DNA of 64,000 nt from Phaeacidiphilus oryzae TH49 (GCF_000744815.1 NZ_JQMQ01000005.1:4729801-4793800); one strand, 5' to 3'. Counted from the stretch's first letter, positions 6,580 through 37,152 are shown. Made by a program: numbers and translations. The notes: generated from the sequence alone by a model not told the origin.

Positions 6580-6735
6580 GCCCTGGTCCCTGCGCCCCGC
6601 GCTCTGCGCCCTGCGCACCCTGTCAAGACCGCGTAAATCGGCGGCCGGACCGCGCAAGGAAAGCGTTAACGCCGAAGCTCCGGGCTCCGGCGTGGGGTTG
6701 TCTGACGGGGAAGCAGGCGAGAGAGGGCAGCCAGC

Positions 6736-12816: not shown

Positions 12817-13013
12817 CGCGCCAGGCTGCCACACCGGCGCAGGCCCGCGCGCGCAGCACGCGCGCGGGGGCCGGCGCGCCCCTCGCGGCGGGCGTGCCGC
12901 CGCACCGGCCGGCGGCGGAGCGGCGGAACACCCGCCGACTGTCGGTGGGGCCCGGTAGCGTTCCTCGGGTCGGCTGGGGATCGGCCGACCAGGACCGGAA
13001 GGGGTGGGGAGCC

Positions 13014-14027: not shown

Positions 14028-14054
14028 ACGGCGAACGATCGGGTTGACGGCCCG

Positions 14055-21462: not shown

Positions 21463-23988
21463 ATGGCACCCCCGGAGACGGGGGAGGCGGCCGTGGCTGA
21501 GTTCTCCCGGCGCCGTTTCCTCAAGCGCGCCGCGGGCACCGGCGCCGCGGCGGCCGCCGCGGCCCTGCTGCCGCCCAACCTCCGGCAGGCGGTCGCCGCC
21601 GAGCCGGCCCGCCGACTCGGCTCCCTCGACGAGATCGAGCACGTGGTGATCCTGATGCAGGAGAACCGCTCGTTCGACCACTACTTCGGCACCATGCCGG
21701 GGGTCCGCGGGTTCGACGACCCGAACGCGGTCCAGCTCTCCACCGGCCGCTCGGTCTTCTACCAGCCCGACCCGGAGAACCCGGACGGCTACCTCCTCCC
21801 GTTCCACCTCGACACCCGCACCACCAGCGCGCAGGCGATCCCCTCGACCAGCCACGCCTGGTCGGTCCAGCACTCCGCGGTGAACGGCGGACGGATGGAC
21901 AACTGGGTCCCCGCCCACCGCAAGGCGGACGGCGAGGCCCGCGGCCCCTACACGATGGGCTACTACGAGCGGGACGACATCCCCTTCCACTGGGCGCTGG
22001 CCGAGGCCTTCACCCTCTGCGACGGCTACCACTGCTCCCTGCTCGGCCCGACCTGGCCCAACCGGCTCTACCACTGGACCGGCACCATCGACCCGAGCGG
22101 CACCATGGGCGGCCCGGTGACCAGCAACACCATCCCGTCCCCGTTCCGCTGGACCACCTATCCCGAGCGGCTGACCGCGGCCGGCGTCTCCTGGCACGTC
22201 TACCAGCAGGAGGACGACTACGGCTGCAACCCGCTCGAGTTCTTCGCCAACTTCCAGAACGCCGAGCCCGGTTCGGCCCTCCACGAGCACGGCCTGACCA
22301 TCGGCCCGGCCGACCGCTTCGAGCAGGACGCCCTCAACGGCCGCCTGCCCACCGTCTCCTGGATCATTCCGACCTCCGGCCAGTCCGAGCACCCGGACTA
22401 CCTGCCGGCCTCCGGCGCCGACTTCCTGGCCCGGCAGCTGGACGCCGTGGCCGCCAACCGCGACCTGTGGCGGAAGACCGTCTTCATCCTCAACTACGAC
22501 GAGAACGACGGCCTCTTCGACCACGTGGTCCCGCCACTGCCGCCGGCCGGCACCCCGGACGAGTTCGTCGGCGGCCTGCCGATCGGCGCCGGGGTGCGGG
22601 TGCCGTGCGTCATCGTCTCGCCGTGGACCCGGGGCGGGCTGGTCGCCACCGAGAACTTCGACCACACCTCGGTGCTGCGCTTCCTGGAAAGGCTGACCGG
22701 CGTCCAGGAGACCAACATCAGCGCCTGGCGCCGCTCCACCTTCGGCGACCTCACCTCGGCCTTCGGCCTCCCGGGCGGCGGTTCGGACGGCTCCTTCCCG
22801 CAACTCCCGGAGACCAAGGGCGAGCTGCGGCTGGCCGAGTACGAGGTGGCGACACTGCCGCCGGCCACCTTCCCCGGCGCCGACCAGACGCCGCCGCACC
22901 AGGGCAGCGTGAGCAGCCGCAGTGCGAGCCCCTCCGCGATTCCGTCCGCCCCCGAGCGCTACCCCGGCAGCAGCCACTGGTTCCGCAACCGGATCGCCGA
23001 GGACCCGACGGCCCGTCAGAAGAAGGCCACCGAGTTCCCGGGACCGGCCGTCCGGGTCCCCACCGCCGCCCCCGCGGGCGCCGGCCGGCTGGCCTACGCG
23101 GCCTGCCCGGCGGGGAGCATCCTCGCCATGGTCGACACGGCCACCAGGACCCTGGTCGCCGCCTCCTACAGCGGAGTCACCAACCCCTACGGCGTCGCCG
23201 CCCTGCCGGACGGCGGCAAGCTCTACATCGCCAACTCGGGGGAGAGCGACGTCGCGGTCTACGACACCGCCAAGCGGGCGGTGACCTCCTCCGTCACGGT
23301 GGGCCTCTACCCCCACGGCGTCGCCGTGTCGCCGGACGGCGGGCTGGTCTATGTGGCCAACACCGGCTCGGACACCGGGCCCGGCTCCTCGAACAGCCTC
23401 TCCGTCATCGACACCGGCTCCGACGAGGTCGCGGACACCTGGCGGGTCGGCACCTCCCCGCACACCGTCGCCCCCCTCCCGGACGGCCGTTCGCTCCTCG
23501 TCACCTGCTACGACGGCCTGGTCGTGGTGGACGCCGAGAGCGGCCGGGTGCGCGGCCGGCTGCCCGACCAGTCCCGGGCCGTCGGCGTCTCCGTCCACCC
23601 CGACGGCCGCCGCGCCTACGTGGCCAACCCCTCCCGGAACACCGTCTCGGTGATCGACCTGGCGGCCGGCCGGACGGTCTCCCGTATCCCCGTCGGCCGC
23701 ACCCCGTGGCGGACGGCGGTGACCGGGGACGGCAGCCGGGTGCTGGTCACCAACTCCGGCGAGGACACGGTCACCGCGCTGGACGCGGCCACCGGCCGGG
23801 TCCTGGGCCGGGCGGCCGTCCACCACATCCCGACCGGCCTCTCCATCGACCCGGTGACCGGGCTCGCCTGGGTCGCCACCAACGTCTCCAGCACCCTCGA
23901 CGTCATCGACCCGGCGACCATGCGGGTGCTGTCCAGCACCCTGATCGCGCTCTCCGCCGAACCGGCCACCATCGCCTTCGCGCCCTGA
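21463..23988 (+). CDS. Tat-secreted phospholipase C (phosphoesterase family, PlcN-like) fused to a C-terminal YVTN-type beta-propeller repeat region
   Basis: Tat signal SRRRFLKRAAG; phosphoesterase core (VVILMQENRSFDHYFGT...NYDENDG). The C-terminal 330 aa or so carry roughly 40-residue YVTN-like repeats (YGVAALPDGGKLYIANSGESDVAVYD..., GVAVSPDGGLVYVANTGSD..., SVHPDGRRAYVANPSRNTVSVID...). Confidence 0.85.
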   Translation: MAPPETGEAAVAEFSRRRFLKRAAGTGAAAAAAALLPPNLRQAVAAEPARRLGSLDEIEHVVILMQENRSFDHYFGTMPGVRGFDDPNAVQLSTGRSVFYQPDPENPDGYLLPFHLDTRTTSAQAIPSTSHAWSVQHSAVNGGRMDNWVPAHRKADGEARGPYTMGYYERDDIPFHWALAEAFTLCDGYHCSLLGPTWPNRLYHWTGTIDPSGTMGGPVTSNTIPSPFRWTTYPERLTAAGVSWHVYQQEDDYGCNPLEFFANFQNAEPGSALHEHGLTIGPADRFEQDALNGRLPTVSWIIPTSGQSEHPDYLPASGADFLARQLDAVAANRDLWRKTVFILNYDENDGLFDHVVPPLPPAGTPDEFVGGLPIGAGVRVPCVIVSPWTRGGLVATENFDHTSVLRFLERLTGVQETNISAWRRSTFGDLTSAFGLPGGGSDGSFPQLPETKGELRLAEYEVATLPPATFPGADQTPPHQGSVSSRSASPSAIPSAPERYPGSSHWFRNRIAEDPTARQKKATEFPGPAVRVPTAAPAGAGRLAYAACPAGSILAMVDTATRTLVAASYSGVTNPYGVAALPDGGKLYIANSGESDVAVYDTAKRAVTSSVTVGLYPHGVAVSPDGGLVYVANTGSDTGPGSSNSLSVIDTGSDEVADTWRVGTSPHTVAPLPDGRSLLVTCYDGLVVVDAESGRVRGRLPDQSRAVGVSVHPDGRRAYVANPSRNTVSVIDLAAGRTVSRIPVGRTPWRTAVTGDGSRVLVTNSGEDTVTALDAATGRVLGRAAVHHIPTGLSIDPVTGLAWVATNVSSTLDVIDPATMRVLSSTLIALSAEPATIAFAP

Positions 23989-23998
23989 CCGGCCCGGC

Positions 23999-24745
23999 TC
24001 AGTCCCGCAGCAGGCCGCCCAGCACCCCGCCCAGGCCGCCGGCCTCGACCGCCTCCCGCTCGCCACCGAGCGGGAGGTACGGCACCAGGGCGTGCGCCAG
24101 GTTCGGCAGCGGCATGGACTGGAGCCAGATGTCGCCGGGCCCGGTGAGCGCGACCAGGTAGTAGCCGTCGCCGCCGAAGAGGCGGTTGGTCACGCCCGGC
24201 ACCCGGGTCATGGTGAACCGCACCCGCTCCTCGAACATCCCGATGTGCCCCGGGTGGACGAGCATCGTCCGCCCGGCCGGGAGCTGGTAGTGGCACAGCT
24301 CTCCGGAGAGCTCGATCCAGGCCCGGCCGCTGCCCTCCAGCCGCTGGAGGAGGAAGCCGTCCCCGCCCCACAGCCCCCCGCGGAAGCTCTGCTGCAGCCC
24401 GACCGTCGGCGTCACCCCGGGGGTGCCGGCCAGCCAGCCGTGCCGGTGCACCAGGTAGCCGCGGTCCCGGTCGACGTCGACCGGCACGATGTGGCCGGGC
24501 ACCTTCGAGGCGAAGGCGACCATCCCCGGGCCGCCCTCGGGCTGGTAGCGGGTGAGGAACAGCCCCCCGCCGCCGGCCAGCCGCTTCAGCGTCCGCAGCA
24601 GGCCGCCGCCAGCCTGGGCGGACTGGCTCATCGTCATGTTCTCGGACATCCAGGAGAGCTCGCCGTGCGGCGTGACCAGGCTCTCCCCGACGTTCATGGT
24701 GACTTCGAGCACCGGCATGGTGCTCCCCTTGACCACGGCTTCCAT
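23999..24745 (-). CDS. AIM24 family protein (TIGR00266 / DUF124)
   Basis: N-terminus PVLEVTMNVGESLVTPHGELSWMSENMTMS matches the AIM24-family N-terminal pattern, and the protein is Gly-rich and mostly beta in character. Confidence 0.75.
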   Translation of the reverse strand: MEAVVKGSTMPVLEVTMNVGESLVTPHGELSWMSENMTMSQSAQAGGGLLRTLKRLAGGGGLFLTRYQPEGGPGMVAFASKVPGHIVPVDVDRDRGYLVHRHGWLAGTPGVTPTVGLQQSFRGGLWGGDGFLLQRLEGSGRAWIELSGELCHYQLPAGRTMLVHPGHIGMFEERVRFTMTRVPGVTNRLFGGDGYYLVALTGPGDIWLQSMPLPNLAHALVPYLPLGGEREAVEAGGLGGVLGGLLRD

Positions 24746-24889: not shown

Positions 24890-25462
24890 GTGACCGTGAG
24901 CACCGAACTCCAGAACAAGACCATCGCCTTCCTCGTCGCGCCCGAAGGAGTGGAGCAGGTCGAACTGACCGATCCCTGGCAGGCCGTCCACGACGCGGGC
25001 GGGACGCCGCGCCTCCTCTCCACGGGCGCCGAACGCGTCCAGGCCTTCAACCATCTGGACAAGGCGGACACCTTCCCGGTCCACCAGCAGGTCGCGGACG
25101 CCGACCCGGCCGACTACGACGCGCTGGTCCTGCCCGGCGGCGTGGCCAACCCCGACTTCCTGCGGACCGACTCCGACGCGGTGGCCTTCACCAAGGCCTT
25201 CTTCGACGCCCGCAAGCCGGTCGCGGCGATCTGCCACGGCCCGTGGACCCTGGTCGAGGCCGGCGTGGTCCGCGACCGCACGCTGACCTCCTGGCCGAGC
25301 CTGCGCACCGACATCGAGAACGCCAGCGGCCACTGGGTCGACGAGGAGGTCTTCGTCTGCCCCGGCGGGCCCAACGTGCTGATCACCAGCCGCAAGCCGG
25401 ACGACCTGCCGGCCTTCGACAAGGCCCTGATCACCGAGTTCGCCAAGGGCCCGAAGGGCTGA
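24890..25462 (+). CDS. DJ-1/PfpI family protein (type-1 glutamine amidotransferase-like)
   Basis: IAFLVAPEGVEQVEL, nucleophile-elbow Cys (AAICHGPW) and VVRDRTLTSWPS are DJ-1/PfpI signatures. Confidence 0.85.
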   Translation: MTVSTELQNKTIAFLVAPEGVEQVELTDPWQAVHDAGGTPRLLSTGAERVQAFNHLDKADTFPVHQQVADADPADYDALVLPGGVANPDFLRTDSDAVAFTKAFFDARKPVAAICHGPWTLVEAGVVRDRTLTSWPSLRTDIENASGHWVDEEVFVCPGGPNVLITSRKPDDLPAFDKALITEFAKGPKG

Positions 25463-25540
25463 CCGGGCGGCCCGCCTGACCGGGCGCCCCTCCTGACCGG
25501 GCGCGCCCCCTCCTCACCGGCCTCCCCTCCCCGCCGCGGA

Positions 25541-28500
25541 TCAGCGCGGGTGCCGTGGGGCGTGCGACTCGCGCTCCGCGGTACGGAGGATGGCGGATTC
25601 GATGGCCGCGGCCCGGTCGGCCAGGAGGGAGAGGGCGGCCGCCGCGCGATGGGCGGGATCGGCCTCCGGGCCGCCGCCCGCGCCGGTGAGCGCGCGGGCC
25701 CGGACGTGGGCGGCCCGGATCTCCTTGAGACGGACGCCCTCCTCCGGGGTCAGGGCGCCGCGCAGTTCGGCCAGGCGCAGGAGGTTGAACTCCGCGCCGG
25801 TGGCGAGAGTCTGGGCGGCGGCCGTGTAGTGGTCGTCGACGACCGCCGCGGCCTCGGCCGGGTTCATGGCGGGGTCCAGGCGGGCGGCGACGGCGTTCAT
25901 GTCCCGATAGGAGCCCTGGAGGAGGAACGGCGGCTCCGTGCGGGTCTCCGGCGACTGCGCGGCCGAGGCGATGTAGGCGGCGTTGACCGCCAGCACCGTG
26001 TCCCGGGCTGCCAGCAGATGGCGCAGGACGCTCTCGATCCGGGCCAGGTCGGCGGGCGGGCAGGCGGCCCGGAGGGGCTCCCGGCGGGCGGCGGGATCGC
26101 CGGCGGCGAGGCGGAGGAGAGTGGTCAGGTCCGACCGGTCGAAGGCGGCCGCGGGAGCCAGGACCGGGTTGGCGGCCAGGGCGTTCTCGATGAAGCTGAG
26201 CGAGAAGGCGTCCTCGCGGCCGGAGAGGACCTCGCCCAGGTTCCAGACGTCGGCGCGGCTGGCCAGCATGTCGGGGATGCGGAAGCGGCCGCCGGACTCG
26301 GTGTACGGGTTGGCGGTCATCCACACCGCGAAGCGCTTGCCGCGCAGGTCGTAGCGGCGGGCCGCGCCGTTCCACACCCCCTCGACGCCGCGCTGCGCGT
26401 CGCACAGCGGGATGAAGCGCTGCAGCAGCTCGGGGGAGGCGTGCTGGACGTCGTCGAGGTGCAGAAGCACGTTGCCGCCCGCGGCCAGCGCGAAGTTGAC
26501 CTTCTCGATCTCGCGGCGAGCGGCCGCGTCCGGGGCCCGGGCCGGATCGAGGGAGGTCGTGCCCTCGCCGAGGGCCGGCCCGTCCACCCGGACCAGCAGC
26601 AGGCCGAGGCGGTCGGCGACGTAGTCGATCAGGCTGGTCTTGCCGTAGCCGGGCGGCGACACGAGGAGGAGCAGGCCCTGCTGGGCGACGCGCGGGCCCT
26701 CGGCCGTACCGAGCTGGCGGGCCAGGCTGTCCCCGACGAGGGGCAGGTACACCTCCTCGATCAGGCGGTTGCGGACGAAGCCGGCACTGACCCGCGGACG
26801 GTGCTCGTCCAGGCGCAGCTGGGCTCGGGCGGCGGCGACCAGGTCGGCACGGCGGTGCTGGTAGGCGCGGAAGGCCGGGACCTCGACGGCCTCGAACCTG
26901 GCCGTGCGGTCGAGGAGTTCGTCCAGGCGGACCTCCAGCCGGCCGTGGTCGATGCGCGGGTGGCTGCCGCGGAGGCCCTCCACCGTGTGGGAGAGCGGGG
27001 CCTCGACCAGGCGACGGGGGAGTCCGGGGGTGAGCTCGGCGGCGACGGCTTCGGCGATCGAGGCCGGGACGGCGTCGAGAGCCGAGTCGGCCTCGGTGGA
27101 GGCGGCGCTCGCGTCGGCGTAGGCGCTGAGCCAGGTCTCGACGAGCTGGCGGCGGGCGGGGAGGTCGTCGGCGAGGGAGGAGAGGGCGTCCGGGTAGGAG
27201 GCCCGCGCGTCCTCGCTCATGGCGCGGTGGAAGCCGTCCAGGAAGGTGCGGGCGCCGGCGCTGAGGGCGAAGTCGTCGGGGGTCTCGGTCAGCTCCTCGA
27301 AGAGGTACTCGGCGGCGGCGGGCGAGGAGCCGTCCCCCGGCGTGAACTCCTCGATGGCGCGGGCGAGTTCGGCGCACCAGGCGGCGATCCCGGCGGCACC
27401 GCCCGGCGTCGGGCCGAAGTCGGCGCGGGCCCGGGACAGGGAGGCGGCGCGCAGGGCCCAGACGGCGCGCGACTCGGGGGTCGCGCCGTGCGCCCAGAAG
27501 AGCTGGGCGGAGGCCCGCGCCCGCGCGGGGAAGCGCAGCACGCCCGCCCCGGCGCGGAGCCGCAGGAGGGCGGCGAGGATGAGCGCGGCGTCGTGGTCGT
27601 GCACACCCTGCTCGTAGCCCTCGTCGTAGGCGGATCGGGCGGCGGCGGAGGCGAGTTCGGTGAGTTCGACGAGGTCGTCCGGATCGGAGCCGAGGGCGTT
27701 GGAGCCGAGCGCGTCCGGGCCGTTGTCGCGTAGCAGGCGGGCGGCCAGGTACTCGGCACGGTAGACGGCCGGTGACTCCGAGGGGAGCGTGCGGCCCCAG
27801 CAGTCGCAGGTGCTGAGGAAGTCCGGGTCGGTGACGGGCTCGCGGTAGTCGGTGCCGGTGACGGCGAGGTCCAGGCCTCCGTCGGCGCCCGGGACCAGGG
27901 CGAGGTCGAACGGCTGGGTGGTGACGGTGAAGCGGCGCCGGCCCAGGCGGACCACGCGGCCGCCCTCCGTGTACAGATCGGCGCGGTCGCGCAGGGCACG
28001 GGCGGCCGCCTGCCCGGCCTCGGCCAGCCGGCCTTCCAACTCCTCGGCGCGCAGCGGCTCGTCGAGCCCGCGCAGGTCGGCCGCCGCCCTGCGGATCCGG
28101 GCCACCACCGGGTCGGTGGCGAAGTAGGCGGCGGCCGCGGTGGCGTCCGGCAGCGCGGAGACCCGGAGGCCGACCGTCCGCAGCGCCTGCTCGGCGGCGC
28201 GGAGCAGCCGCTCGGCCCGGCGGGCGCGCTCGTCCAGCAGGTTCTGGCGGCGGGCCGCGAAGGCGTCGGTGATCTCCGCGCGCAGTTCCGCGGTACGGGC
28301 CAGGGCCTCCTCGGAGGCGCCGAAGCGGGACTCCAGGTCCTCCAGCCGGAAGAGCAGGCGTGCCGACTGCTCCTCGCACGCGGCGGGGGTCCCCGCGGAG
28401 GCGAGGGCGGTCGCGGTGGTCTGGCGCAGCAGGGCGAGTTCGGCCGCGGACTCGGCCCGGCTCTCGTCCTCGCCGAGCTCGGCCAGGCGCGCAGCGAGCG

Positions 28501-30676
28501 CCGCCCGGGCGGCGTTGGCGGAGGCGAGCACCCGGCCTACGCGCTCCAGGATGCCGGTGCGGACGGCGGCGTCGCCGATGTCCAGCTCGGTGACGACGTC
28601 GGTGACGGTGCGCAGTCCGCGCTGCAGCTCGTCCAGGCGGGCGGAGAGCGGCGCGGAGTCGGCCGTCCGGTCCAGGGCCCCGGCCCGGGCGGTGAGCGCG
28701 GACAGGTCGGCGAGGAGGCCGTCGAAGGCGTCGGGACGGGCCAGGTGCTCGACGGCCCGCCGGGCGAAGGAGGCGATGTCCGACTCCAGGCCGGCGGCCA
28801 GGGCGAGTGCCGACTCGCGTTCCACGTACGGGAGTTCGGCCAGGGGGAGGACGGCGGCGTGCGCGGTGCGCAGGGCTGTCAGGCGCTCCACCCATTCGGC
28901 GGCGGTGGCCGGGGCCTCGCCGCGGGCGCGCCGGACCAACGCGGTGACCTCCCGCTCGGCCTCGGCGAGCGCGTCGGCGGCACGGCGGGTGAGGTCGTCC
29001 ACGCGGTCGAACTCGGCGAGGGTCTGCGCGGCGGTGGCCCGCAGCGCCTCCAGGATCGTCAGGACGTCCCGGAGCGGGCTCCCCGTGGCCTGGGCCTCTT
29101 CGGCCTCTTCGGCTGCTTCGGTCTCTTCGGCCTCCGCAAGCCATGGGTGGGCGCTGACGGCGTGGGTGCAGGCGGCGGCCAGCCGCCGGTAGCCCTCGGC
29201 GGTGTGCTCGGGCTCGGTGGCCGAGCGGGCGATCGCGAAGAGCGTGGAGACCCCGCGCACCAGATCGGCGTTGCCGATCCGGGCCAGCGCCGGGTCGGGG
29301 GCGTCGGTGGTACGGGAGTGGGCGTCGGCCCACGTGTCCGACGCGTAGGGCGAGTTCCAGAACTGGACGGTGTGGACGCGGGCGGGCTCGCCGGCGGCGT
29401 CCGCCCGCAGCAGGGCGAGGGTGCCGTCGTCGAGCAGCGTGTAGTCCCGGCAGAGCAGCGGGGCCGCGAACTCCTGGCGCACCAGGTTGTAGGAGAGCAG
29501 CAGGGCGTGGCCGGTGGCCCGGCAGCGGAAGGCGTAGAGGACGTCCTCGCCGCCGGGCGCGCGGTGCTCGCGTTCGAATTCCGGCTCGCGGATCACTGCG
29601 GGGTCCGGTTCGAAGGCGCCGTGCCGGCCGCCGGCCAGGCAGTAGCCGCCGGGGAAGACGACGCCCTGCTGGTCGGGCAGCGAGCGGCAGGCCCGGCCGA
29701 TGCCGTCCAGGCGGACGACGGCCCGGGTGGTGGTGTCGAAGACCAGATGGCGGGCGACCGGCTCCCGGTAGGGGCGGACGCGCAGCAGGATCAGCGCGCC
29801 CACGCGGGCGTGCGCGACCTCGGCGTCGTCCAGGGACTGCAGCGGCTCGTCGACCGGCTCGCTGTACACGCCGTCGCCGGTGGCGGTGTCGTCCTCGGTC
29901 TTGACGGTGAGGGTGCCGCCGAGGGTGTCGACGAACAGCTCGCCGCGGACGGCGATGTGCGGGTGCCGGCCGGCCCGCTGGTCCTCCCGGACCGCCTCGG
30001 TCCAGTCGAAGTCGTACGCGGGGGCGGGGGAGAGCTCGCGGTCGCCGTGGGCGTCCAGGAACTCGGCGGAGTCGTCCTTGACGGCCCAGCGCAGCCCGCG
30101 GACGTCGGTGGCGCGCTCGCCCGTACGGAAGAGGGCGAGGACGCCGTCCTCGCCGCCGCGCAGGCGGACCAGCCGGGCGTCGCGGAAGTAGCGGTGCAGC
30201 TCGTCGAAGGCCTGCCGGAAGCCCGGCGCGTCCAGCAGGCCGGGCACGGCGTCGGCGGGCAGCGGGGCCAACTCGCGATCGTGGAGGGCGAGTACGTCGG
30301 CCGGGCGGACGCCGGCGCCGTCGCCCGGGCCGGAGACGGGGCTGGAGCCGGGGACGGGGACGGGGCTGGAGCCGGGCACGGGGGCGAAGCCCAGCAGCAG
30401 CCGGTCGCCCACCCTGGCGATCCCGCTGGGGAGGGCGGCACGCTCGGTACGGACGCGGGCGGTACGGGCCGGCGCGAGACGCGCGGAGCCGAAGGCGGCT
30501 GTCCGGCGCGTGTTCAACTCCTCGGTGAGCGAGCCGAGTTCGGCCGCCTGCGCGGCGAGTCTGCGGCGCAGGACGGCGTAGGCTCCGGCATCCGGCCCGG
30601 AGTGCGGACCGGCTCCGATGGCCGCCCCCGCGGTCGCGTCCGCCCGCGGCTCCCTCTCCTCACCTGCTGCGTTCAC
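25541..30676 (-). CDS. Giant (1711 aa) MoxR-like AAA+ ATPase with a long N-terminal region and coiled-coil segments; last gene of the NfeD-flotillin operon
   Basis: Single uninterrupted frame. C-terminal AAA domain has Walker A LLLLVSPPGYGKTSL, Walker B VLLHLDDVQ and a MoxR-like sensor region (FAVWMTANPYTESGGRFRIPDMLASRADVWNLG). Long Ala/Glu/Arg-rich coiled-coil stretches upstream. GTG start at 30676 overlaps an upstream in-frame TGA (GTGA). Confidence 0.8.
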   Translation of the reverse strand: MNAAGEEREPRADATAGAAIGAGPHSGPDAGAYAVLRRRLAAQAAELGSLTEELNTRRTAAFGSARLAPARTARVRTERAALPSGIARVGDRLLLGFAPVPGSSPVPVPGSSPVSGPGDGAGVRPADVLALHDRELAPLPADAVPGLLDAPGFRQAFDELHRYFRDARLVRLRGGEDGVLALFRTGERATDVRGLRWAVKDDSAEFLDAHGDRELSPAPAYDFDWTEAVREDQRAGRHPHIAVRGELFVDTLGGTLTVKTEDDTATGDGVYSEPVDEPLQSLDDAEVAHARVGALILLRVRPYREPVARHLVFDTTTRAVVRLDGIGRACRSLPDQQGVVFPGGYCLAGGRHGAFEPDPAVIREPEFEREHRAPGGEDVLYAFRCRATGHALLLSYNLVRQEFAAPLLCRDYTLLDDGTLALLRADAAGEPARVHTVQFWNSPYASDTWADAHSRTTDAPDPALARIGNADLVRGVSTLFAIARSATEPEHTAEGYRRLAAACTHAVSAHPWLAEAEETEAAEEAEEAQATGSPLRDVLTILEALRATAAQTLAEFDRVDDLTRRAADALAEAEREVTALVRRARGEAPATAAEWVERLTALRTAHAAVLPLAELPYVERESALALAAGLESDIASFARRAVEHLARPDAFDGLLADLSALTARAGALDRTADSAPLSARLDELQRGLRTVTDVVTELDIGDAAVRTGILERVGRVLASANAARAALAARLAELGEDESRAESAAELALLRQTTATALASAGTPAACEEQSARLLFRLEDLESRFGASEEALARTAELRAEITDAFAARRQNLLDERARRAERLLRAAEQALRTVGLRVSALPDATAAAAYFATDPVVARIRRAAADLRGLDEPLRAEELEGRLAEAGQAAARALRDRADLYTEGGRVVRLGRRRFTVTTQPFDLALVPGADGGLDLAVTGTDYREPVTDPDFLSTCDCWGRTLPSESPAVYRAEYLAARLLRDNGPDALGSNALGSDPDDLVELTELASAAARSAYDEGYEQGVHDHDAALILAALLRLRAGAGVLRFPARARASAQLFWAHGATPESRAVWALRAASLSRARADFGPTPGGAAGIAAWCAELARAIEEFTPGDGSSPAAAEYLFEELTETPDDFALSAGARTFLDGFHRAMSEDARASYPDALSSLADDLPARRQLVETWLSAYADASAASTEADSALDAVPASIAEAVAAELTPGLPRRLVEAPLSHTVEGLRGSHPRIDHGRLEVRLDELLDRTARFEAVEVPAFRAYQHRRADLVAAARAQLRLDEHRPRVSAGFVRNRLIEEVYLPLVGDSLARQLGTAEGPRVAQQGLLLLVSPPGYGKTSLIDYVADRLGLLLVRVDGPALGEGTTSLDPARAPDAAARREIEKVNFALAAGGNVLLHLDDVQHASPELLQRFIPLCDAQRGVEGVWNGAARRYDLRGKRFAVWMTANPYTESGGRFRIPDMLASRADVWNLGEVLSGREDAFSLSFIENALAANPVLAPAAAFDRSDLTTLLRLAAGDPAARREPLRAACPPADLARIESVLRHLLAARDTVLAVNAAYIASAAQSPETRTEPPFLLQGSYRDMNAVAARLDPAMNPAEAAAVVDDHYTAAAQTLATGAEFNLLRLAELRGALTPEEGVRLKEIRAAHVRARALTGAGGGPEADPAHRAAAALSLLADRAAAIESAILRTAERESHAPRHPR

Positions 30677-30704
30677 GTCCGGCGTCTCTCACTTCCCGGC
30701 TTGT

Positions 30705-30872
30705 ACCGCGTGTGCTGTGTGTACTGCGTCTGCCGCGTGCCTTGCGTGCCTCGCGTGGCCTGCGTGCTCCGCGTGCCTCGCGTGCCCGGCGTGCCTCGTG
30801 TGCCCCGGGGGCCTCGCGTGCCCTGCGTGCCTCGCGTGGCCCGGGGGCCCGCGTGCCCTGTCCGCCCCGCGT
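30705..30872. repeat. About 18-copy tandem 9-bp repeat array (consensus CYCGCGTGC) filling the flotillin to AAA-ATPase intergenic region
   Basis: Direct reading gives ...gccgcgtgc cttgcgtgc ctcgcgtgg cctgcgtgc tccgcgtgc ctcgcgtgc ccggcgtgc ctcgtgtgc cccgggggc ctcgcgtgc cctgcgtgc ctcgcgtgg cccgggggc... Because the unit is 9 bp, all three frames stay open. A 96-aa minus-strand ORF (30673-30963) spans it. Confidence 0.85.
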
Positions 30873-30959
30873 GTGCCGGCGCCCCGGGCCCCCGGCCCGT
30901 CCGGCCCGGTGCCGCGCCTGTCGGGCCCGACCCCTGTGCGGGCCCGACAGGAAGCGCGG

Positions 30960-33041
30960 TCACGCCGAGGCGTCGCCGCCGTTCGCCGCCGCCAGCGGCA
31001 TCTGGGCCAGGCCCAACCGCTCGGCCTGCTCCATCAGACGGCGGACCTGGCCGGCCTGCGCCCCGCCGTCCTTGGCCAGCCGCGTCAGCAGTGCCGACAC
31101 CGTGAGGTCGCGCACGTCCCCGGCGGAGACCGAGCCGACCATCCTGGTCAGGTCCTCCGGGAAGCTCGCGCTGCCGTTCAGCCAGGGGCCGATCAGCGCC
31201 TGCGCCGTCTCGGAGTGCTGGACGAAGCCGTCGACGCCCTTGCCCATGCCGATCGCCGAGACCAGCCGGTCGAAGAAGGCGCTCTCGCCGCCGACGATGT
31301 CGATGTCGGCGTGCTCCAACCCGGTGGCCAGCACGGTGGCCTGGGCCTCCGCGAGCCGGCGCTGCATGTCCAGGCCGGCCAGCCGGACCTCCTTCTCCGC
31401 GGCCAGGCGCAGCCGGTACTCCTCGTGGCCGCGGGAGGCGTCGTCCAGCGCGGCCATCGCCGCAGCCTTCTCGGTGAGCCCCTCGGCCTCGGCCTTCAGC
31501 TTCTCGCCGATCATCGCGGCCTCCGCGGTGGCCAGTGCCGCCGTCCCCTCGGCCTCGGCGAGCGCCTTGAGCCGCGCCCCCTCCGCCTCGGCCCGCAGCC
31601 GCGCGGCCGTCGCCTCGGCCTCGGCCCGGCCGGCCTTCTCCACTACCTCCGCCTCCTTGTCCCGCACCTGCACGGAGGCGAGGCCGCCGGCGGCCTCCTC
31701 GGCCTGCACGGCCTCGGCGAGCCGCAGCTTGGCCTTGGCGTCCAGGTCGGCGGCCTTCAACCGGGCCTCGGCCAGGGTGAGTTGCTCGGCCGCCCGGTGA
31801 GTGGCCGCGGCCTCGGCGGCCTCCGCCGCCTTGATGTCCTTGACCAGCCGCTCCTGGGCCTCCGCCTCGGCGGCGATGATCACGGACTGGCGGGTGCGCT
31901 CGGCCTCCTCGACCACGCGCAGCTTCTTGATGGACTCCTCCTGCTCGGCGACCGTCCGGTCGACCGCGACCCGCTCGCGTACCACGTCCGCCATCTCCCG
32001 GCGCTCGGTCTCGACCTCGCGCTGGGCGGCGATCCGGGACAGCTCGGTGGCACGGTCCCGGGCGATGGCCTCCAACTGGCGGTCCTTCTCGATCCGTTCG
32101 TTCTCCACGGCGATCACCCGCTCGCGGTTCTTCTCCGCGGCGGCGATCTCCCGCGCCTGGTTCTCGCGCTGCACGCCGAGCAGCTCCTCGGTGCGGATGA
32201 ACGCGGTCTGCGCCTCCAGCCGCTGCTCCTCCTGCGTCTTGGCGGTGACCGCCTCCTCGCGGGCCCGCAGCGTCTCCACCTCGCGGCGCTGCTTGATCTC
32301 GGCCTCCGCCTGCCGGCGCTCCAGCTCCAGGATGGTCTCCCGGGCGTCGACGTCCTGGCGGGTGATCTCCTTCTGCTCGGTGCGCTGGTACTCGTTGGTG
32401 CGCACGTGCTCGGTCGTCGTCAGCTCGGTGATCTTGCGGATGCCCTGGGCGTCCAGGATGTTCGACGGGTCGAGCTGCGACATCGAGGTCTGCTCGAGGA
32501 AGTCGATGGCCGCGTCGTCCAGGTGGTAGCCGTTCAGGTCGGTGCCGATGACCTGGATGATGCGGTCCCGGAACTCCTCGCGCTTGGTGTAGAGATCGAC
32601 GAAGTCCAGCTGCTTGCCGACGGTCTTGAGCCCCTCGGAGAACTTCGCCGCGAAGAACTCCTGGATCGCCTTCGGGTCGCTGGCGGTGGCCGTGCCGATG
32701 GACTGCGCGACCTTGACGACGTCCTCGACGGTCTTGTTCACCCGCACGAAGAACGAGATGTGGATGTCCGCGCGGATGTTGTCCCGGCAGATCAGCCCCT
32801 CCCGGCCGGTGCGCCGGATCTCGATGGTCTTCACCGAGATGTCCATGTACTCGGCCTTGTGGACGACGGGCAGCACGATCGCGCCGGTGAAGGTCACGTC
32901 GACCTTCTTGGCCTTGGAGATGATCAGCGCCCGCCCCTGCTCCACCTTGCGGAACAGCCGGCTGAAGAGCACCAGCACCGTGAGCGAGATGAGCAGCACG
33001 ACGGCGACGAGCACACCGATGGCCAGGGATACGGCATCCAT
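30960..33041 (-). CDS. Flotillin family (SPFH/band-7) protein, YqiK/FloT-like, with an extended coiled-coil
   Basis: N-terminal transmembrane anchor, SPFH domain (ALIISKAKKVDVTFTGAIVLPVVHKAEYMDISVKTIEI...) and a long EA-rich coiled-coil (AEAEIKQRREVETLRAREEA...). GAAGGA RBS precedes the ATG at 33041. Confidence 0.9.
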   Translation of the reverse strand: MDAVSLAIGVLVAVVLLISLTVLVLFSRLFRKVEQGRALIISKAKKVDVTFTGAIVLPVVHKAEYMDISVKTIEIRRTGREGLICRDNIRADIHISFFVRVNKTVEDVVKVAQSIGTATASDPKAIQEFFAAKFSEGLKTVGKQLDFVDLYTKREEFRDRIIQVIGTDLNGYHLDDAAIDFLEQTSMSQLDPSNILDAQGIRKITELTTTEHVRTNEYQRTEQKEITRQDVDARETILELERRQAEAEIKQRREVETLRAREEAVTAKTQEEQRLEAQTAFIRTEELLGVQRENQAREIAAAEKNRERVIAVENERIEKDRQLEAIARDRATELSRIAAQREVETERREMADVVRERVAVDRTVAEQEESIKKLRVVEEAERTRQSVIIAAEAEAQERLVKDIKAAEAAEAAATHRAAEQLTLAEARLKAADLDAKAKLRLAEAVQAEEAAGGLASVQVRDKEAEVVEKAGRAEAEATAARLRAEAEGARLKALAEAEGTAALATAEAAMIGEKLKAEAEGLTEKAAAMAALDDASRGHEEYRLRLAAEKEVRLAGLDMQRRLAEAQATVLATGLEHADIDIVGGESAFFDRLVSAIGMGKGVDGFVQHSETAQALIGPWLNGSASFPEDLTRMVGSVSAGDVRDLTVSALLTRLAKDGGAQAGQVRRLMEQAERLGLAQMPLAAANGGDASA

Positions 33042-33070
33042 GACAGAGACAGTCCTTCGAGGATCAACAG

Positions 33071-33095
33071 GTGAGGTGAGGTGAGATGAGGTGCG
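33071..33095. repeat. Hexamer tandem repeat (GGTGAG x4 on plus strand, CTCACC on minus strand) in the flotillin 5' leader
   Basis: Plus strand reads caggtgaggtgaggtgagatgaggtg, located 30-55 nt upstream of the flotillin ATG on the minus strand. Confidence 0.7.
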
Positions 33096-33195
33096 CCGAG
33101 CGGGCCGCGGACACGCACGCGGGCATGCGGGCCCGCGAGTCGGTGGCCGGGCGTCGCGGAGACTCTTCCCGGAACCCGGCAGCTTCGGCTCGCCG

Positions 33196-33252
33196 CCGCT
33201 ACGTCTGCAGCGCTACGTCTGCGCCGCTACGTCTGCGTCACTACGTCTGCGG
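33196..33252. repeat. Tandem 14-bp repeat x4 (CGCTACGTCTGCGN) between the NfeD-like gene stop and the flotillin start
   Basis: ccgctacgtctgcag cgctacgtctgcgc cgctacgtctgcgt cactacgtctgcgg; each unit has an ACGT core. The last copy overlaps the NfeD-like stop. Confidence 0.8.
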
Positions 33253-33885
33253 CGCGCCCGGCGGCCCGGTTTCGGGTCGCAGTACGGGGTCGAAGGGCGC
33301 GACCCAGAAGAACTCGCCCTGCTCGTCGTAGTCGTAGAGCAGACCGGTGGTCCCCGCGGCCCCCGCGGCCAGCAGCTCGGCGTCCCTCGGCTGGGCGCGG
33401 ACCGGCACCACGGCGCTCGACCCGTCCTCGGCGCCGACCTCGGCCTGGCCGAATTCGGCCGTGACCCGCCCGGTGCGGATCCGGCAGGTGAGTCCGACGA
33501 AGTCGCGCCGGGACGGGGCGGATTGCTCGGGCAGCACCCGGCGCAGCCGCCGGACCAGCGCCAGGGTGGACACCCAGGACAGCAGCAGGGCGGCGAAGAG
33601 CACCGCCGTTTCGAGGACGGTCCGCAGGGGCCCCGCCGCGACCGCGGCGCGGACCAGCAGCGCGCCGGTCAGGCTGGTGAACCAGGCGATCAGGACCAGG
33701 AAGGACACCGGCACGGTGACCGGTACCGAGCCGCCGCCGAGCGTCTCGGGGAGGTGGTGGGCGTGCAGCGCGTCGTGGTCCGCCGCCCCGACCAGGACCA
33801 GCAGCCAGAACACCACCACGACGATCAGGGCTGCGCCGAACAGCACGGCCGGGAAACCGAGCGCGGCACGCAGGAACTCTCCCAC
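33241..33885 (-). CDS. NfeD-like / YqiJ-family (DUF1449) membrane protein; first gene of the flotillin operon
   Basis: N-terminal transmembrane helices (FPAVLFGAALIVVVVFWLLVLVGAA, FLVLIAWFTSLTGALLV) and a C-terminal beta-rich OB-like region, in the position of yqiJ/nfeD upstream of the flotillin. GGAGGGGGAGGG lies 3 nt upstream of the GTG at 33885. ORF is open to 34191. Confidence 0.65.
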   Translation of the reverse strand: MGEFLRAALGFPAVLFGAALIVVVVFWLLVLVGAADHDALHAHHLPETLGGGSVPVTVPVSFLVLIAWFTSLTGALLVRAAVAAGPLRTVLETAVLFAALLLSWVSTLALVRRLRRVLPEQSAPSRRDFVGLTCRIRTGRVTAEFGQAEVGAEDGSSAVVPVRAQPRDAELLAAGAAGTTGLLYDYDEQGEFFWVAPFDPVLRPETGPPGAPQT

Positions 33886-34141
33886 CTGCCCTCCCCCTCC
33901 GAAACCGGCCCTGCGGCCCTCGCTTTCCGGGCGTGGCCTCGTGCCACTCCCCTGCGAGACAGCATCCTGAGGGGAGGGAGGGGCCCACCGCATTGCCCGT
34001 TTCCGGCAATCTTTACCGGCTCCCCATGCCGGTTGCACGACAACCGGACCCACCTGCGATTCTTGATTGGTTCTTGACGACGGGCGCTGAGCCGCCGTTG
34101 ACGGCACCGCGTGACGGTCGGGAGGGGTGGGGTGGGTGTCG

Positions 34142-35230
34142 ATGTCCGATGCCGTGGTCGCCGCGGACTGGAGCGCCGGCGAAGGCGCCACCGGCCCCGA
34201 CGGCTACGCCCGGCTGCTCGCCGAGGTCGCGGCGACCGGCCGCCGCCTCACCCGCGGGGAACTCGACGAGCATCGCGCCCGTGGCGAGGCCGCCGCCGGC
34301 TCCGGTCGCTCGCTCCGTGAACTCGTCGGCCGCTACCTGGCCGCGACCAGGGCCGCCTGGCCGGAGAACGCCCCCTCGGCGGACCCAGTGCTGGCCGCGA
34401 TGGCCATGGCCGTGGACGCCTTCGCCGACGGCTACGAGCGCGCTCAGCGGATCGCCGTCCGCCAGGAGGAGAACGCCCGCCGGGAGTTCATCGACGACCT
34501 GCTGTACGGCCGCGGGGACCTCGGCCGGCTCGCCCAGCGCGCCGAGCGCTTCGGCCTCCGCCTCGCCCACGCGTACGTCGTGGCCGTGGCGGCGGCCGCG
34601 GACCTCGCCGCGTACGACGCCGTGCACCCCGTCACGCGACAGGTGGAACTCGCCCTGCGCGGCCGGTTCGGCACCCGCAGCATCCTCCTCACCACCAAGG
34701 ACGCCCGGCTCGTCTGCATCGCCCCCGCCGATCACACCGACGTGCTCGACCACTTCGCCGCGCTGGTCCGCGGCGCGGACCGCACGGCGCGCGTCGCCGT
34801 CGGCCGCCCGCACCCAGGCGCGGGCGGCGTCGTCCACTCGTACGAGGAGGCGCTCAACGCCCTCGACCTGGCCGACCGCCTCGACCTGCCCAGCCCTCTG
34901 CTGCACGCCGCCGACCTGCTGGTCTACCCCGTGCTGACCCGCGACCGGGACGCCATGGCCGACCTGGTGCGGCACGCCCTCGGCCCGCTGGAGCGGGCCC
35001 GCGGCGGAGCCGGGCCGCTGCTGAGGACGCTCAGCGTCTACTTCGACAGCGGCTGCGTCTCGGCGGAGGCGGCCCGCAGGCTCGCACTCAGCGTCCGCGC
35101 CCTCACCTACCGCCTGGCCCGAGTCCGGGACCTGACCGGCGCCGACCCGGCCGACCCGGCCCACCGCTACACCCTCCAGACCGCCGTCATCGGCGCCCGC
35201 CTACTGGACTGGCCCGCCCGGGCGCTGTGA
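34142..35230 (+). CDS. PucR/CdaR family transcriptional regulator
   Basis: C-terminal PucR-type HTH (RTLSVYFDSGCVSAEAARRLALSVRALTYRLARVRDLTGADPADP). Transcribed divergently from the NfeD-flotillin operon. Start could be GTG 34127, GTG 34136 or ATG 34142. Confidence 0.75.
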   Translation: MSDAVVAADWSAGEGATGPDGYARLLAEVAATGRRLTRGELDEHRARGEAAAGSGRSLRELVGRYLAATRAAWPENAPSADPVLAAMAMAVDAFADGYERAQRIAVRQEENARREFIDDLLYGRGDLGRLAQRAERFGLRLAHAYVVAVAAAADLAAYDAVHPVTRQVELALRGRFGTRSILLTTKDARLVCIAPADHTDVLDHFAALVRGADRTARVAVGRPHPGAGGVVHSYEEALNALDLADRLDLPSPLLHAADLLVYPVLTRDRDAMADLVRHALGPLERARGGAGPLLRTLSVYFDSGCVSAEAARRLALSVRALTYRLARVRDLTGADPADPAHRYTLQTAVIGARLLDWPARAL

Positions 35231-35258: not shown

Positions 35259-35798
35259 GTGATCATCAGCAGAGGCGGCCGTCGTGCCGCGATCCGAACA
35301 GACGAGTCTTCTGCCGTCTACGTCGGCACACATGTCGCTCGCTGCGAGCGCGCCGGCCCGGCCGAGCCGGTACGTGCGGTGCGGGCGGTCGTGGAACTGA
35401 GCCGAGCGCTCGGCGGGATGACGATGCGGGCCCTTCTCGGGGCCGAGTTCTCACCGGATCCATCGGGGTCGGCGACTGAGTTCGAGGTCCCGTTCGATGA
35501 GCCTCTGGGGCTCGGCGCGGTTGCCCATGCCCACTGCCGCAGCGAGCTCGGACGCTCGCTCGTGGCTGGGTTGCCAGGCGACTTCGCCGCTGCGGTGCTC
35601 GACGGACTGGCAGGAGAGGCCGCGGCCAGGACGTTGCCGAGGGGGCTGCTGCGGATCGACCGCGCGGGCTTCGACGAGGCAGGCTCCTCTGAGATGGCCT
35701 TCAAGCTCGCTGGGGGCCTGTTGCGGTGTGTCGTGGAGGCCCTGCTGCATGGCGACGATCCGCTCGTGGCGGCCCAGGCCGTCGTGAGCGGATGGTGA
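35259..35798 (+). CDS. Hypothetical protein with atypical (lower GC3) codon usage
   Basis: 179-aa ORF with protein-like composition but many A/T-ending codons (tca, gat, cca, act, gtt, ttg, tct, tgt) compared with its neighbours. Lies between the PucR gene and the tRNA-Lys 3' end. Confidence 0.3.
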   Translation: MIISRGGRRAAIRTDESSAVYVGTHVARCERAGPAEPVRAVRAVVELSRALGGMTMRALLGAEFSPDPSGSATEFEVPFDEPLGLGAVAHAHCRSELGRSLVAGLPGDFAAAVLDGLAGEAAARTLPRGLLRIDRAGFDEAGSSEMAFKLAGGLLRCVVEALLHGDDPLVAAQAVVSGW

Positions 35799-36015
35799 CG
35801 TGGGAGTCAGGCCGAAGAATAGGCAGCGCCGATGGCAGCCGGGGGCCCCCGGTGAACAGCCTCACCAAGGCGTCCAGATGGCCGATGCCGTGTAGTCGTG
35901 TGTGCGCGGACGCCCCACGCAGGGGGAGTGAGCCTGCGCACTGGGACCTGCCTCCGGCGAGCTGATCGGACGCGTGCGGTTCTTGTGCAGGCGTTCCCGC
36001 TCTGCTCCCACCGCA

Positions 36016-36064
36016 AATCAAAAACGGCCTGGGGCCTCCCGTCGAAACGCGAGGCCCCAGGCCG
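36016..36064 (-). terminator. Intrinsic terminator downstream of tRNA-Lys
   Basis: Minus strand has a 13-bp perfect stem GGCCTGGGGCCTC/GAGGCCCCAGGCC with loop gcgtttcgacgg, then GTTTTTGATTTG. It starts 22 nt after the tRNA 3' end. Confidence 0.75.
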
Positions 36065-36085
36065 TTGTACTGCATGTCTTGCTTG

Positions 36086-36159
36086 TGCGCCGCCAGGGAC
36101 TCGAACCCCGGACCCGCTGATTAAGAGTCAGCTGCTCTAACCAACTGAGCTAGCGGCGC
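36086..36159 (-). tRNA. tRNA-Lys: tRNA-Lys (anticodon CTT)
   Basis: Minus strand GCGCCGCTAGCTCAGTTGGTTAGAGCAGCTGACTCTTAATCAGCGGGTCCGGGGTTCGAGTCCCTGGCGGCGCA folds as a cloverleaf: 7-bp acceptor stem, TAGCTCAGTTGGTTAGAGC D-arm, anticodon loop CTCTTAA, GGTTCGAGTCC T-arm. CCA is not encoded. Confidence 0.9.
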
Positions 36160-36267: not shown

Positions 36268-37077
36268 TCAGCGGCTGGAGGCGGCCGCCGCGGTGCTGGT
36301 GGTCTGGTCGGTCTCGACCAGGCGGCGGACGGCGTCCGCGATCTCGTCCCGGGCGACCAGCAGCTGGAGCCAGATCCGCGGCTCCCGGCCGTCCCAGCCC
36401 GGGTAGAGGCGGGCGCTGAGGCAGCCGGCGGCGGCCAGCGCGGCCAGCCGCCGGTCGTGGACGGAAGCGCCCTGAACAGCGGGCGCGCCGGGGGGCACGC
36501 CGCCCCCGCCGCGGGCCCCGCCGACCGCCCGTACCGCCGCGTCCACCTCGGCCGCCAGCCGCCGGTGGGCGTCCGCCGACTCGGCGTAGTACCCGGTGCG
36601 CGGGAAGAGGCCCAGCACCCGCCGCTGCTCGACCCGCAGCAGCCCCCGCGAGACCAGCGCGTCCAGATACGGCCGGTCCGCGTTTCTGGCCAGCCGGCGC
36701 AGCGCCGCCTGCAGCGGCAGCCCGCGCGGGTTCTCGGCGGCCGCCTCGGCCACCCAGGCCAGCGCCGCGTCAAGGCCCGGCTCCCCGCGCGGTGCCGGCG
36801 AGGCGAGCCCGACCCGTCCGCCGCCGACCCGGACCGACCGGTTCAGCTGCAGCTCCGCCAGTACCGCCCCGGCCAGCGCGTACCGGAAGAACTGCGGCTG
36901 CCGTACCCGCAGGCTGCGCGGGTCGAGGCAGAGGAGCAGCAGCTCCTCGGGCAGCGGGAGCCGGTACGCGGCACGCGAATCGAAGCCGGTTTCTGGGGTC
37001 GTCGCTCCGTCCACCCGACCACGTTCGCACGGCCGAGCGGGCATCCGGCAGGCTCGCGGGGACGACCGGCCGCTCAT
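36268..37077 (-). CDS. GPP34/GOLPH3 family protein
   Basis: LPLPEELLLLCLDPRSLRVRQPQFFRYALAGAVLAELQL matches the GPP34-family N-terminal signature. The longer ORF to 38034 is antisense to the peptidase gene, so the start is taken at ATG 37077; ATG 37044 is an alternative. Confidence 0.7.
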   Translation of the reverse strand: MSGRSSPRACRMPARPCERGRVDGATTPETGFDSRAAYRLPLPEELLLLCLDPRSLRVRQPQFFRYALAGAVLAELQLNRSVRVGGGRVGLASPAPRGEPGLDAALAWVAEAAAENPRGLPLQAALRRLARNADRPYLDALVSRGLLRVEQRRVLGLFPRTGYYAESADAHRRLAAEVDAAVRAVGGARGGGGVPPGAPAVQGASVHDRRLAALAAAGCLSARLYPGWDGREPRIWLQLLVARDEIADAVRRLVETDQTTSTAAAASSR

Positions 37078-37152
37078 GGGGCGGATGTCGGTGCGCCGTG
37101 ATACGTCTGACGGCGTATCGGAACCGACGGTCGCGGCCAGCGGAGGTAGGCG

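Follow-up and report, generated by a model that had tools for sequence, protein, structure and literature searches.

The 64,000-nucleotide stretch of the Phaeacidiphilus oryzae TH49 genome analyzed here (GCF_000744815.1, NZ_JQMQ01000005.1:4729801-4793800; hereafter the window, with positions counted from its first letter) carries three co-directional minus-strand genes, whose products are a small membrane protein, a flotillin and an ATPase of giant size, together with a divergently transcribed gene for a PucR-family regulator. The G+C content of the window is ~74% and its true open reading frames (ORFs) are overlapped by many spurious ones; the true frames were chosen by codon-position GC (GC3). 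GC3 was 0.95 for the ATPase ORF (25541-30676, minus strand), for the flotillin ORF (30960-33041, minus strand) and for the regulator frame (34127/34142-35230, plus strand), and 0.94 for the small membrane ORF (33241-33885, minus strand), while the sequence 5' of 33885 (GC3 0.70) and the sequence 5' of 33041 are non-coding. These ORFs and their GC3 values confirm the gene arrangement laid out in a first-pass annotation made from the sequence alone. The four genes are:

25541-30676, minus strand: giant ATPase, 1711 amino acids (aa) in one open frame, with Pfam DUF3686, DUF7902 and weak AAA/AAA_5 matches.
30960-33041, minus strand: flotillin of the YqiK type, 693 aa, recognized by Band_7 and YqiK homology.
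33241-33885, minus strand: small membrane protein, 214 aa, in the ortholog position 5' of the flotillin.
34142-35230, plus strand: PucR/CdaR-family regulator, divergent from the other three; the longest ORF starts from GTG at 34127.

We examined how far this gene order extends. Searching 1.84 billion representative proteins with HMMER gave 482 clusters of the ATPase family, and in a scan of one genome per species at least 597 genomes were matched by two patterns, one of them the C-terminal motif RTEPPF.LQGSYR.MN; 80 loci, the best matches to the query, were fetched. A flotillin ortholog, detected by tblastn, lies immediately 5' of the ATPase gene and on the same strand in all 80 genome loci with an upstream flank. 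The same order occurs in Proteus mirabilis, Vibrio, Pseudoalteromonas, the BD1-7 clade and Neptuniibacter, on the P. fluorescens plasmid pQBR103, and on a Hymenobacter and a Deinococcus plasmid, giving a combined linkage of 88 out of 88 loci with an upstream flank. They come from Actinomycetota, Gammaproteobacteria, a deltaproteobacterial metagenome-assembled genome, Bacteroidota and Deinococcota, and the linkage to flotillin is strict over these five phylum-level groups. In 63 of 83 loci, tblastn placed an ortholog of the small membrane gene 5' of the flotillin, its loss being limited to a subset of Streptomyces that includes the S. lividans/coelicolor type. Thus the three genes form the conserved syntenic unit that the first-pass annotation had proposed to look for. 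In addition, at least 19 of the 83 loci have a flotillin stop codon that overlaps the ATPase start or almost abuts it, and the membrane-gene stop and flotillin start do so at no fewer than ten junctions, an arrangement that is the signature of translational coupling. De novo clustering of flanking ORFs over the 83 loci revealed no further conserved flanking gene. No ATPase homolog lies beside E. coli yqiJK, and because E. coli has this pair without the ATPase, the ATPase appears to depend on the flotillin and not the reverse.

The flotillin can be divided into three parts:

32370-32948, minus strand: SPFH/Band_7 domain (aa 32-224; Pfam), after an N-terminal transmembrane segment.
31317-32369, minus strand: EA-rich coiled coil.
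30963-31316, minus strand: conserved C-terminal domain (aa ~576-693).

The Pfam Band_7 match (E 3.4e-10) was obtained only when the N-terminal 251 aa were scanned alone, and the protein shares 28% identity with E. coli YqiK over 452 aa (E 1e-37); the long flotillin with an EA-rich coiled coil recognized in the first pass is therefore upheld. Identity to the S. lividans-type ortholog is 77%, and over the full length it is 32-48% to orthologs in five other phylum-level groups. The full-length protein matched zero families in Pfam and NCBIfam scans, a silence probably explained by the coiled coil tripping HMMER filters, and the Pfam Flot domain was not detected in the fragments scanned. Band_7 was also missed by both precomputed and on-the-fly Pfam scans in most long EA-rich flotillins (for example at 5882-7915 of the S. 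lividans/coelicolor-type locus L001 and at 6713-8908 of the P. mirabilis locus L084). Because the scans miss this domain, such flotillins stand in databases as domain-less, "hypothetical" or "secreted" proteins and their synteny is hidden from domain-based surveys.

The small membrane protein was harder to classify. It has hydrophobic helices at its N-terminus and a C-terminal segment of the form FGQAEV...VR...GEFFWV, and in size, topology and position it agrees with YqiJ. Alignment to E. coli YqiJ by hhalign was colinear over 144 columns, with an E-value of 0.0018 and a probability of only 15%, and a tblastn comparison with the Hymenobacter ortholog, named "DUF1449 family protein" in RefSeq, gave E 9.5e-9. 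Orthologs of the small protein yielded weak matches to YqiJ_N (E 0.15) and NfeD (E 0.0078), and a minority of them are named "DUF1449 family", "YqiJ family" or "OB-fold-containing" in UniRef/NCBI. However, none of 24 family members passed the Pfam cut-offs for NfeD (PF01957) or YqiJ (PF21001, PF07290), thresholds for which the window protein is too divergent, whereas E. coli YqiJ, used as a positive control, passed both YqiJ models easily. Pfam, NCBIfam and a PDB profile search did not classify the window protein. Thus, of the DUF1449/NfeD-like membrane protein named at first, the gene is present but no Pfam NfeD/YqiJ threshold is reached, and the weaker evidence available suggests a divergent YqiJ/NfeD-like partner of the flotillin. 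The resulting order, a small membrane protein followed by a flotillin, is that of E. coli yqiJ-yqiK and B. subtilis yuaF-floT; these operons lack the ATPase, unlike the trio in the window, whose flotillin is in addition ~140 aa longer than YqiK and has a conserved C-terminal domain that gave no alignment to it.

To define the domains of the giant ATPase, we combined profile scans with two AlphaFold2 models built from a 43-sequence alignment of actinomycete and proteobacterial homologs, with a predicted local distance difference test score (pLDDT) of 87.8 for aa 1-900 and 88.5 for aa 880-1711. The parts of the protein are:

29153-30538, minus strand: DUF3686 region (PF12458; aa 47-508; E 2.1e-143).
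27977-29338, minus strand: helical stalk or bundle (aa 447-900), containing DUF7902.
28484-28732, minus strand: DUF7902 (PF25472; aa 649-731; E 3e-21).
26780-27976, minus strand: middle domain (aa 901-1299), with a small beta unit ahead of an all-alpha domain (AlphaFold2 pLDDT 88.5).
25952-26779, minus strand: AAA+ module of the MoxR/CbbQ/NorQ-midasin-dynein clade (aa 1300-1575), recognized by fold and motifs.
25544-25951, minus strand: C-terminal helical domain (aa 1576-1711), carrying the motif RTEPPF.LQGSYR.MN, which is invariant in the family.

Both DUF3686 (478.5 bits against a gathering cut-off of 25) and DUF7902 (75.8 bits against 26) were well above threshold, so that the ~1200 aa in front of the AAA+ module, called unassigned in the first pass, are in part assigned to known Pfam families. 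The N-terminal model consists of a helix, then an all-beta domain (aa 68-441), then ~450 residues of long helices. In Foldseek searches of the PDB the beta domain matched WD40 and other propellers, including those of DCAF1, IFT-A, Elp2 and the clathrin terminal domain, with a probability of ~1, E-values of 1e-4 to 1e-5 and template modeling (TM) scores of 0.3-0.42. Since these E-values and TM-scores are modest despite the high probability, the beta core of DUF3686 is a divergent beta-propeller-like domain. The C-terminal model comprises a small beta unit, the all-alpha middle domain, the AAA+ module and a helical tail. Scanned alone against Pfam, neither the middle domain, which carries the conserved motifs GG..IKLGKHRF.VN and EGY..GVHD.DA, nor the C-terminal helical domain found a match. 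The beta-propeller-like DUF3686 domain thus stands at the N-terminus, followed by the long helical stalk with DUF7902, the helical middle domain and, towards the C-terminus, the MoxR-clade AAA+ module, which supplies the profile- and structure-based domain assignment that the first-pass annotation had suggested for this protein. An in-frame tandem repeat at 30323-30382 (aa 99-118; a 24-mer repeated 2.5 times) encodes PVPGSSPVPVPGSSPVSGPG within a low-confidence propeller loop (pLDDT <50 at aa 117-119), and looks like a lineage-specific low-complexity insertion.

Full-length homologs of the ATPase are 1500-2040 aa long, reach down to 24% identity and carry the NCBI name "DNA repair ATPase". Could the large protein be a true DNA repair ATPase that lies next to the flotillin incidentally? 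We find this highly improbable. Only names speak for it, namely this one and the Pfam description of DUF3686 as "ATPase involved in DNA repair", whereas Pfam and NCBIfam scans of the protein detected no DNA-binding, nuclease, helicase, VWA or effector domain, its AAA+ module is of the MoxR clade and not an SMC/Rad50/RecN-type ABC head, and its linkage to a membrane scaffold is invariant (88/88). An SMC-like protein was rejected on similar grounds, as there is a single C-terminal MoxR-fold AAA+ module, no split ABC head and no DNA-related Pfam or NCBIfam domain. The phrase "ATPase involved in DNA repair" agrees with how SbcC and RecN are named in COG, and the label may thus have been transferred via coiled-coil similarity.

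The AAA+ module itself is MoxR-like, as proposed in the first pass, and the fold bears this out: its best structural matches are of the MoxR type, with CbbQ and NorQ nearest, ahead of other AAA+ clades. The sequence motifs reported earlier, GYGKTS (aa 1343-1348), LLHLDDVQ (aa 1404-1411) and MTANPY (aa 1453-1458), were all found in the translation. The Walker A motif reads SPPGYGKTS (K1346), with a family-invariant core GYGKT; the Walker B motif reads LLHLDD (D1408 and D1409), that is DD and not DE, and is invariant in the 43 sequences; N1456, at the sensor-1 position, and R1474 are also family-invariant. Judged from the secondary-structure string only, the model shows a beta-hairpin before beta4 (model residues 551-564), and none is evident in the helix-2 region. 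With the clade formed by the MoxR family (CbbQ, NorQ, RavA), midasin, dynein and McrB, the module shares Walker A, the sensor-1 asparagine and a conserved arginine and, as far as the modeled secondary structure shows, a beta-hairpin before beta4. The Pfam AAA_5/AAA match is weak but end-to-end (aa 1336-1474, covering positions 2-138 of the 139 in the AAA_5 profile), and at 20.2 bits it misses the AAA_5 cut-off of 22. A classical AAA/RuvB assignment based on sequence-only P-loop matches proved misleading and was overruled by the MoxR-type fold. Unlike MoxR proteins, the module ends a 1711-aa protein behind a propeller-like domain and a helical stalk, has DD in Walker B, falls below the AAA_5 cut-off and lacks a VWA partner. 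MoxR-family ATPases such as RavA, CbbQ and NorQ do not unfold substrates but work on large protein assemblies that have already formed, and the usual partner of MoxR proteins is a VWA-domain protein; a canonical MoxR-VWA pair was rejected here for want of that partner.

The genes found around the operon in other lineages give an indication of its physiological setting. In Hymenobacter and Pseudoalteromonas, a CesT/Tir-like chaperone gene (DUF2170 in Pseudoalteromonas) and a PspA/IM30 gene head the operon. In Neptuniibacter, a phospholipase D (PLD)-type gene and a TelA gene are appended after the trio, with TelA (12911-14697 of locus L093) following the PLD-type gene in the same direction, and in Vibrio a TelA gene (14502-16823 of L086) lies near the operon on the opposite strand, beside a ClpX-like AAA+ gene. 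The trio is preceded on pQBR103 by DUF1190 and a glutathionylspermidine synthase-family gene, while in Proteus mirabilis LemA and a TPM-domain gene (PF04536, E 8e-40) lie divergently 5' of it (3747-5518 of L084). Taken together, the PspA, TelA, PLD, LemA/TPM and polyamine genes point to membrane and envelope stress physiology.

Several of these contexts are known from comparative genomics. Passages of Ravi et al. 2024 (mSystems, PMC11237479) describe the trio, made up of a YqiJ/YuaF-type 3TM protein, a band-7/flotillin protein and a beta-propeller/coiled-coil AAA+ ATPase and sometimes extended by CesT/Tir-PspA, as well as an "abbreviated" form; they record a PLD-containing variant of the operon, list TPM domains among PspA-associated partners, and publish the same contexts with the same functional inference of membrane stress. 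In view of these passages, the first-pass statement that a giant AAA+ ATPase is foreign to the established flotillin operons is not supported. The three proteins and their architectures match those of the published operon and nothing essential differs; the full CesT/Tir-PspA form was recovered in Hymenobacter and Pseudoalteromonas and the PLD variant in Neptuniibacter. In the window the CesT/Tir-PspA pair is not adjacent and a PucR gene lies upstream instead, so by gene content the locus is the published "abbreviated" form, lacking that pair. Junctions expanded by tandem repeats set the window apart from the published operon, and three features specific to Streptomyces (the divergent PucR gene, a conserved 19-bp palindrome and a small membrane gene that some of the genus have lost) go beyond what these passages of Ravi et al. 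describe. The operon type is therefore not a discovery, and the value of the present analysis lies in refinement and testability. What it adds in detail is that the ATPase depends strictly on flotillin and has a MoxR-clade fold, that a palindrome is conserved in Streptomyces, and that nothing supports the name "DNA repair".

The distribution of the family also bears on the possibility that the trio is an anti-phage or abortive-infection system, in which the large NTPase would sense infection and the flotillin and membrane protein would act as the membrane effector. The distribution is patchy and includes megaplasmids (the ATPase gene is on 13 plasmid or chromid records), the flanking genes differ between genomes, and in S. 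lividans/coelicolor-type genomes (528-4545 of L001/L002) CAP12-PCTIR TIR-like and BTAD plus ThsA-Macro genes lie beside the flotillin-ATPase pair. Yet these defence-like neighbors were seen in the S. lividans/coelicolor lineage only, and the operon partners in other lineages (PspA, TelA, PLD and polyamine genes) point to stress physiology. Furthermore, not one of 50,697 phage records carried the ATPase gene, PADLOC-DB v2 gave only a 15-bit P-loop-level IetA match for the ATPase and nothing for the other three proteins, and the searches turned up no effector domain of the nuclease, TIR, protease or pore-forming kind. A defence role thus seems improbable to us. A STAND/AVAST-like defence NTPase was rejected since the fold is MoxR-clade AAA+ and there is no effector.

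We next turn to the regulator gene and the region upstream of the operon, where three palindromes were considered:

33992-34010: conserved 19-bp palindrome ATTGCCc-GTTTC-CGGCAAT, with the consensus ATTGCCGG-N3-CCGGCAAT.
33166-33182: weak second copy with 2 mismatches, in the spacer between the membrane gene and the flotillin.
34029-34047: the 7-5-7 palindrome CCGGTTG-CACGA-CAACCGG of the first-pass annotation.

The regulator has both GGDEF_2 (PF17853; 63.9 bits, E 2e-17) and HTH_30 (PF13556; 55.6 bits, E 4.5e-15) above cut-off, in agreement with its earlier assignment to the PucR family and with divergent transcription across a 256-bp spacer. In 35 Streptomyces loci, a PucR ortholog with 63-77% identity is transcribed divergently from the operon; in other genera PucR is not beside the operon, except in Embleya, where the orientation differs. 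The 7-5-7 palindrome is present in the spacer of the window as reported, but it is absent from all 35 orthologous spacers and was rejected as a conserved upstream element. The ATTGCCGG-N3-CCGGCAAT element, by contrast, was found in 31 of the 35 PucR-divergent spacers in addition to the window copy. Its exact form TGCCGG-N3-CCGGCAATG lies 5' of the operon in 34 loci, with a second copy elsewhere in two of them (L031 and L048); several of the 34, as well as Embleya, are without a divergent PucR gene. The pattern has 4 matches at up to 2 mismatches in the window against 0.43 expected, the copy at 33992-34010 having 1 mismatch. The conserved palindrome is the best candidate operator of the operon; the copy at 33166-33182 is suggestive only. 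A scan for consensus promoters gave nothing in this 74% GC region.

The two internal junctions of the operon are unusual in the window. They contain:

33197-33255: tandem repeat of the 14-mer CGCTACGTCTGCGG, 4.2 copies, spanning the stop codon of the small membrane gene.
30733-30858: tandem repeat of the 9-mer CGCGTGCCT, ~14 copies (or an 18-mer in 7 copies), within the spacer between flotillin and ATPase.
30917-30951, minus strand: perfect hairpin (13-bp stem, 9-nt loop), 9 nt past the flotillin stop.

Both junctions do harbor tandem repeats, as had been pointed out, and at 283 nt (flotillin/ATPase) and 199 nt (membrane gene/flotillin) they are long compared with the family medians of 85 and 87 nt, respectively. 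The flotillin/ATPase spacer as a whole has a fold z-score of -3.0, and the hairpin is a possible attenuator, or a terminator without a U-tract; a consensus terminator scan found none in the 74% GC region. A third tandem repeat (25459-25530; a 17-mer in ~4 copies or a 37-mer in 2) lies 11 nt past the ATPase stop, and with the two junction repeats this means that all three gene ends of the operon are trailed by short tandem repeats.

Just 3' of the ATPase lie a DJ-1/PfpI-family gene (24890-25462, plus strand, E 3e-43) and an AIM24-family gene (23999-24745, minus strand, E 2e-55), neither of which is a conserved neighbor of the operon in other genomes. In an 841-aa protein (21463-23988, plus strand), a phosphoesterase domain of the phospholipase C type (PF04185, E 2e-114) is joined to beta-propeller/NHL-like repeats at the C-terminus. 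On the other side, directly after the PucR gene, GC3 is ~0.8 or below in every frame of 35259-36100, which may be non-coding or atypical DNA; a 179-aa ORF within it is without a Pfam match. A 588-aa ORF at 36268-38034 (minus strand) is an over-extension, with a high-GC3 frame only in its C-terminal part (GPP34 domain, aa 361-574), and it is overlapped by a Peptidase_S58 gene on the plus strand at 37153-38088.

What might the trio do? We suggest, with about an even chance of being right, that this conserved operon of a YqiJ/NfeD-like protein, a YqiK-type flotillin and a giant ATPase encodes a flotillin-coupled, MoxR-clade remodeler acting in membrane stress. The flotillin and its small partner would form a membrane-attached SPFH assembly, on which the ATPase, probably a ring oligomer like other MoxR-clade proteins, would dock via its propeller and stalk. 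The docked ATPase would spend ATP to assemble, remodel or dismantle the flotillin scaffold, or to set free the proteins or other contents held in it. The trio would be part of an envelope or membrane stress response together with PspA, whose gene belongs to the operon in some lineages and lies at another site in the rest. Control of the Streptomyces operon would run via the conserved 19-bp upstream palindrome, most likely through the divergent PucR regulator, which would bind this element. That the ATPase remodels flotillin assemblies is plausible by analogy with the way in which other MoxR-clade proteins work on large assemblies, and with Vps4-ESCRT-III/Snf7 and the AAA+ partners of PspA, in which a dedicated AAA+ protein is encoded beside a membrane-shaping or scaffolding polymer. 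The likeness to Vps4 would concern a possible mode of action and not family membership, as the AAA+ clade, the substrate family (SPFH and not ESCRT-III) and the recognition domain (a propeller and not MIT) all differ. The Vps4/ESCRT-III analogy is also drawn in passages of Ravi et al. (PMC11237479).

Several observations weigh against this proposal. The invariant DD in Walker B differs from the DE typical of active AAA+ proteins, and hydrolysis of ATP may therefore be slow or use another base. A VWA partner is not conserved near the operon across the 83 loci. Neither PspA nor Tir was found in the window by tblastn with the Hymenobacter proteins, which is a weak test. The 80 genome loci, selected as best matches, are mostly from actinomycetes. 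Our literature search on DUF3686, DUF7902 and "DNA repair ATPase"/MoxR with flotillin found no experimental study of any member. Finally, because the junctions are long and filled with repeats and a hairpin follows the flotillin stop, co-transcription of flotillin and ATPase is not assured in TH49, although it is well supported for the family.

The client of the ATPase may also be something other than the flotillin. The flotillin could be only a platform, recruiting the ATPase as a MoxR-type maturation or assembly chaperone for other membrane complexes in the flotillin microdomain. The nearest folds are those of CbbQ and NorQ, whose task is the maturation of other enzymes, propellers bind proteins of many kinds, and a chaperone-like role in assembling membrane-linked complexes is proposed in passages of Ravi et al. 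(PMC11237479). Nevertheless, no gene for a conserved third-party client or VWA adaptor lies nearby, and since the two genes are paired one to one, often with translational coupling, the flotillin itself is the more obvious partner. We therefore consider the platform explanation possible but rather unlikely. Returning to a remodeler of the flotillin scaffold, its most specific form is one that we put forward tentatively: the ATPase may be a motor devoted to SPFH/flotillin cages, using ATP to build them or take them apart, with the propeller docked on the C-terminal domain specific to the long flotillins.

If such a cage motor exists, it would be the first known energy-dependent remodeler of an SPFH scaffold and a functional counterpart of Vps4 for ESCRT-III. 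It could be tested in Streptomyces coelicolor (SCO3285/SCO3286, where we infer from adjacency that SCO3286 is the flotillin), in Proteus mirabilis and with plasmid pQBR103. For the Streptomyces operon, a concrete candidate operator is now at hand. The family also shows how misleading a public name can be, with "DNA repair ATPase" applied without support to thousands of sequences. More generally, a flotillin subfamily that always comes with its own MoxR-clade AAA+ protein offers, in tractable organisms, an experimental handle on the role of flotillins and on how SPFH cages may be opened, closed and turned over.

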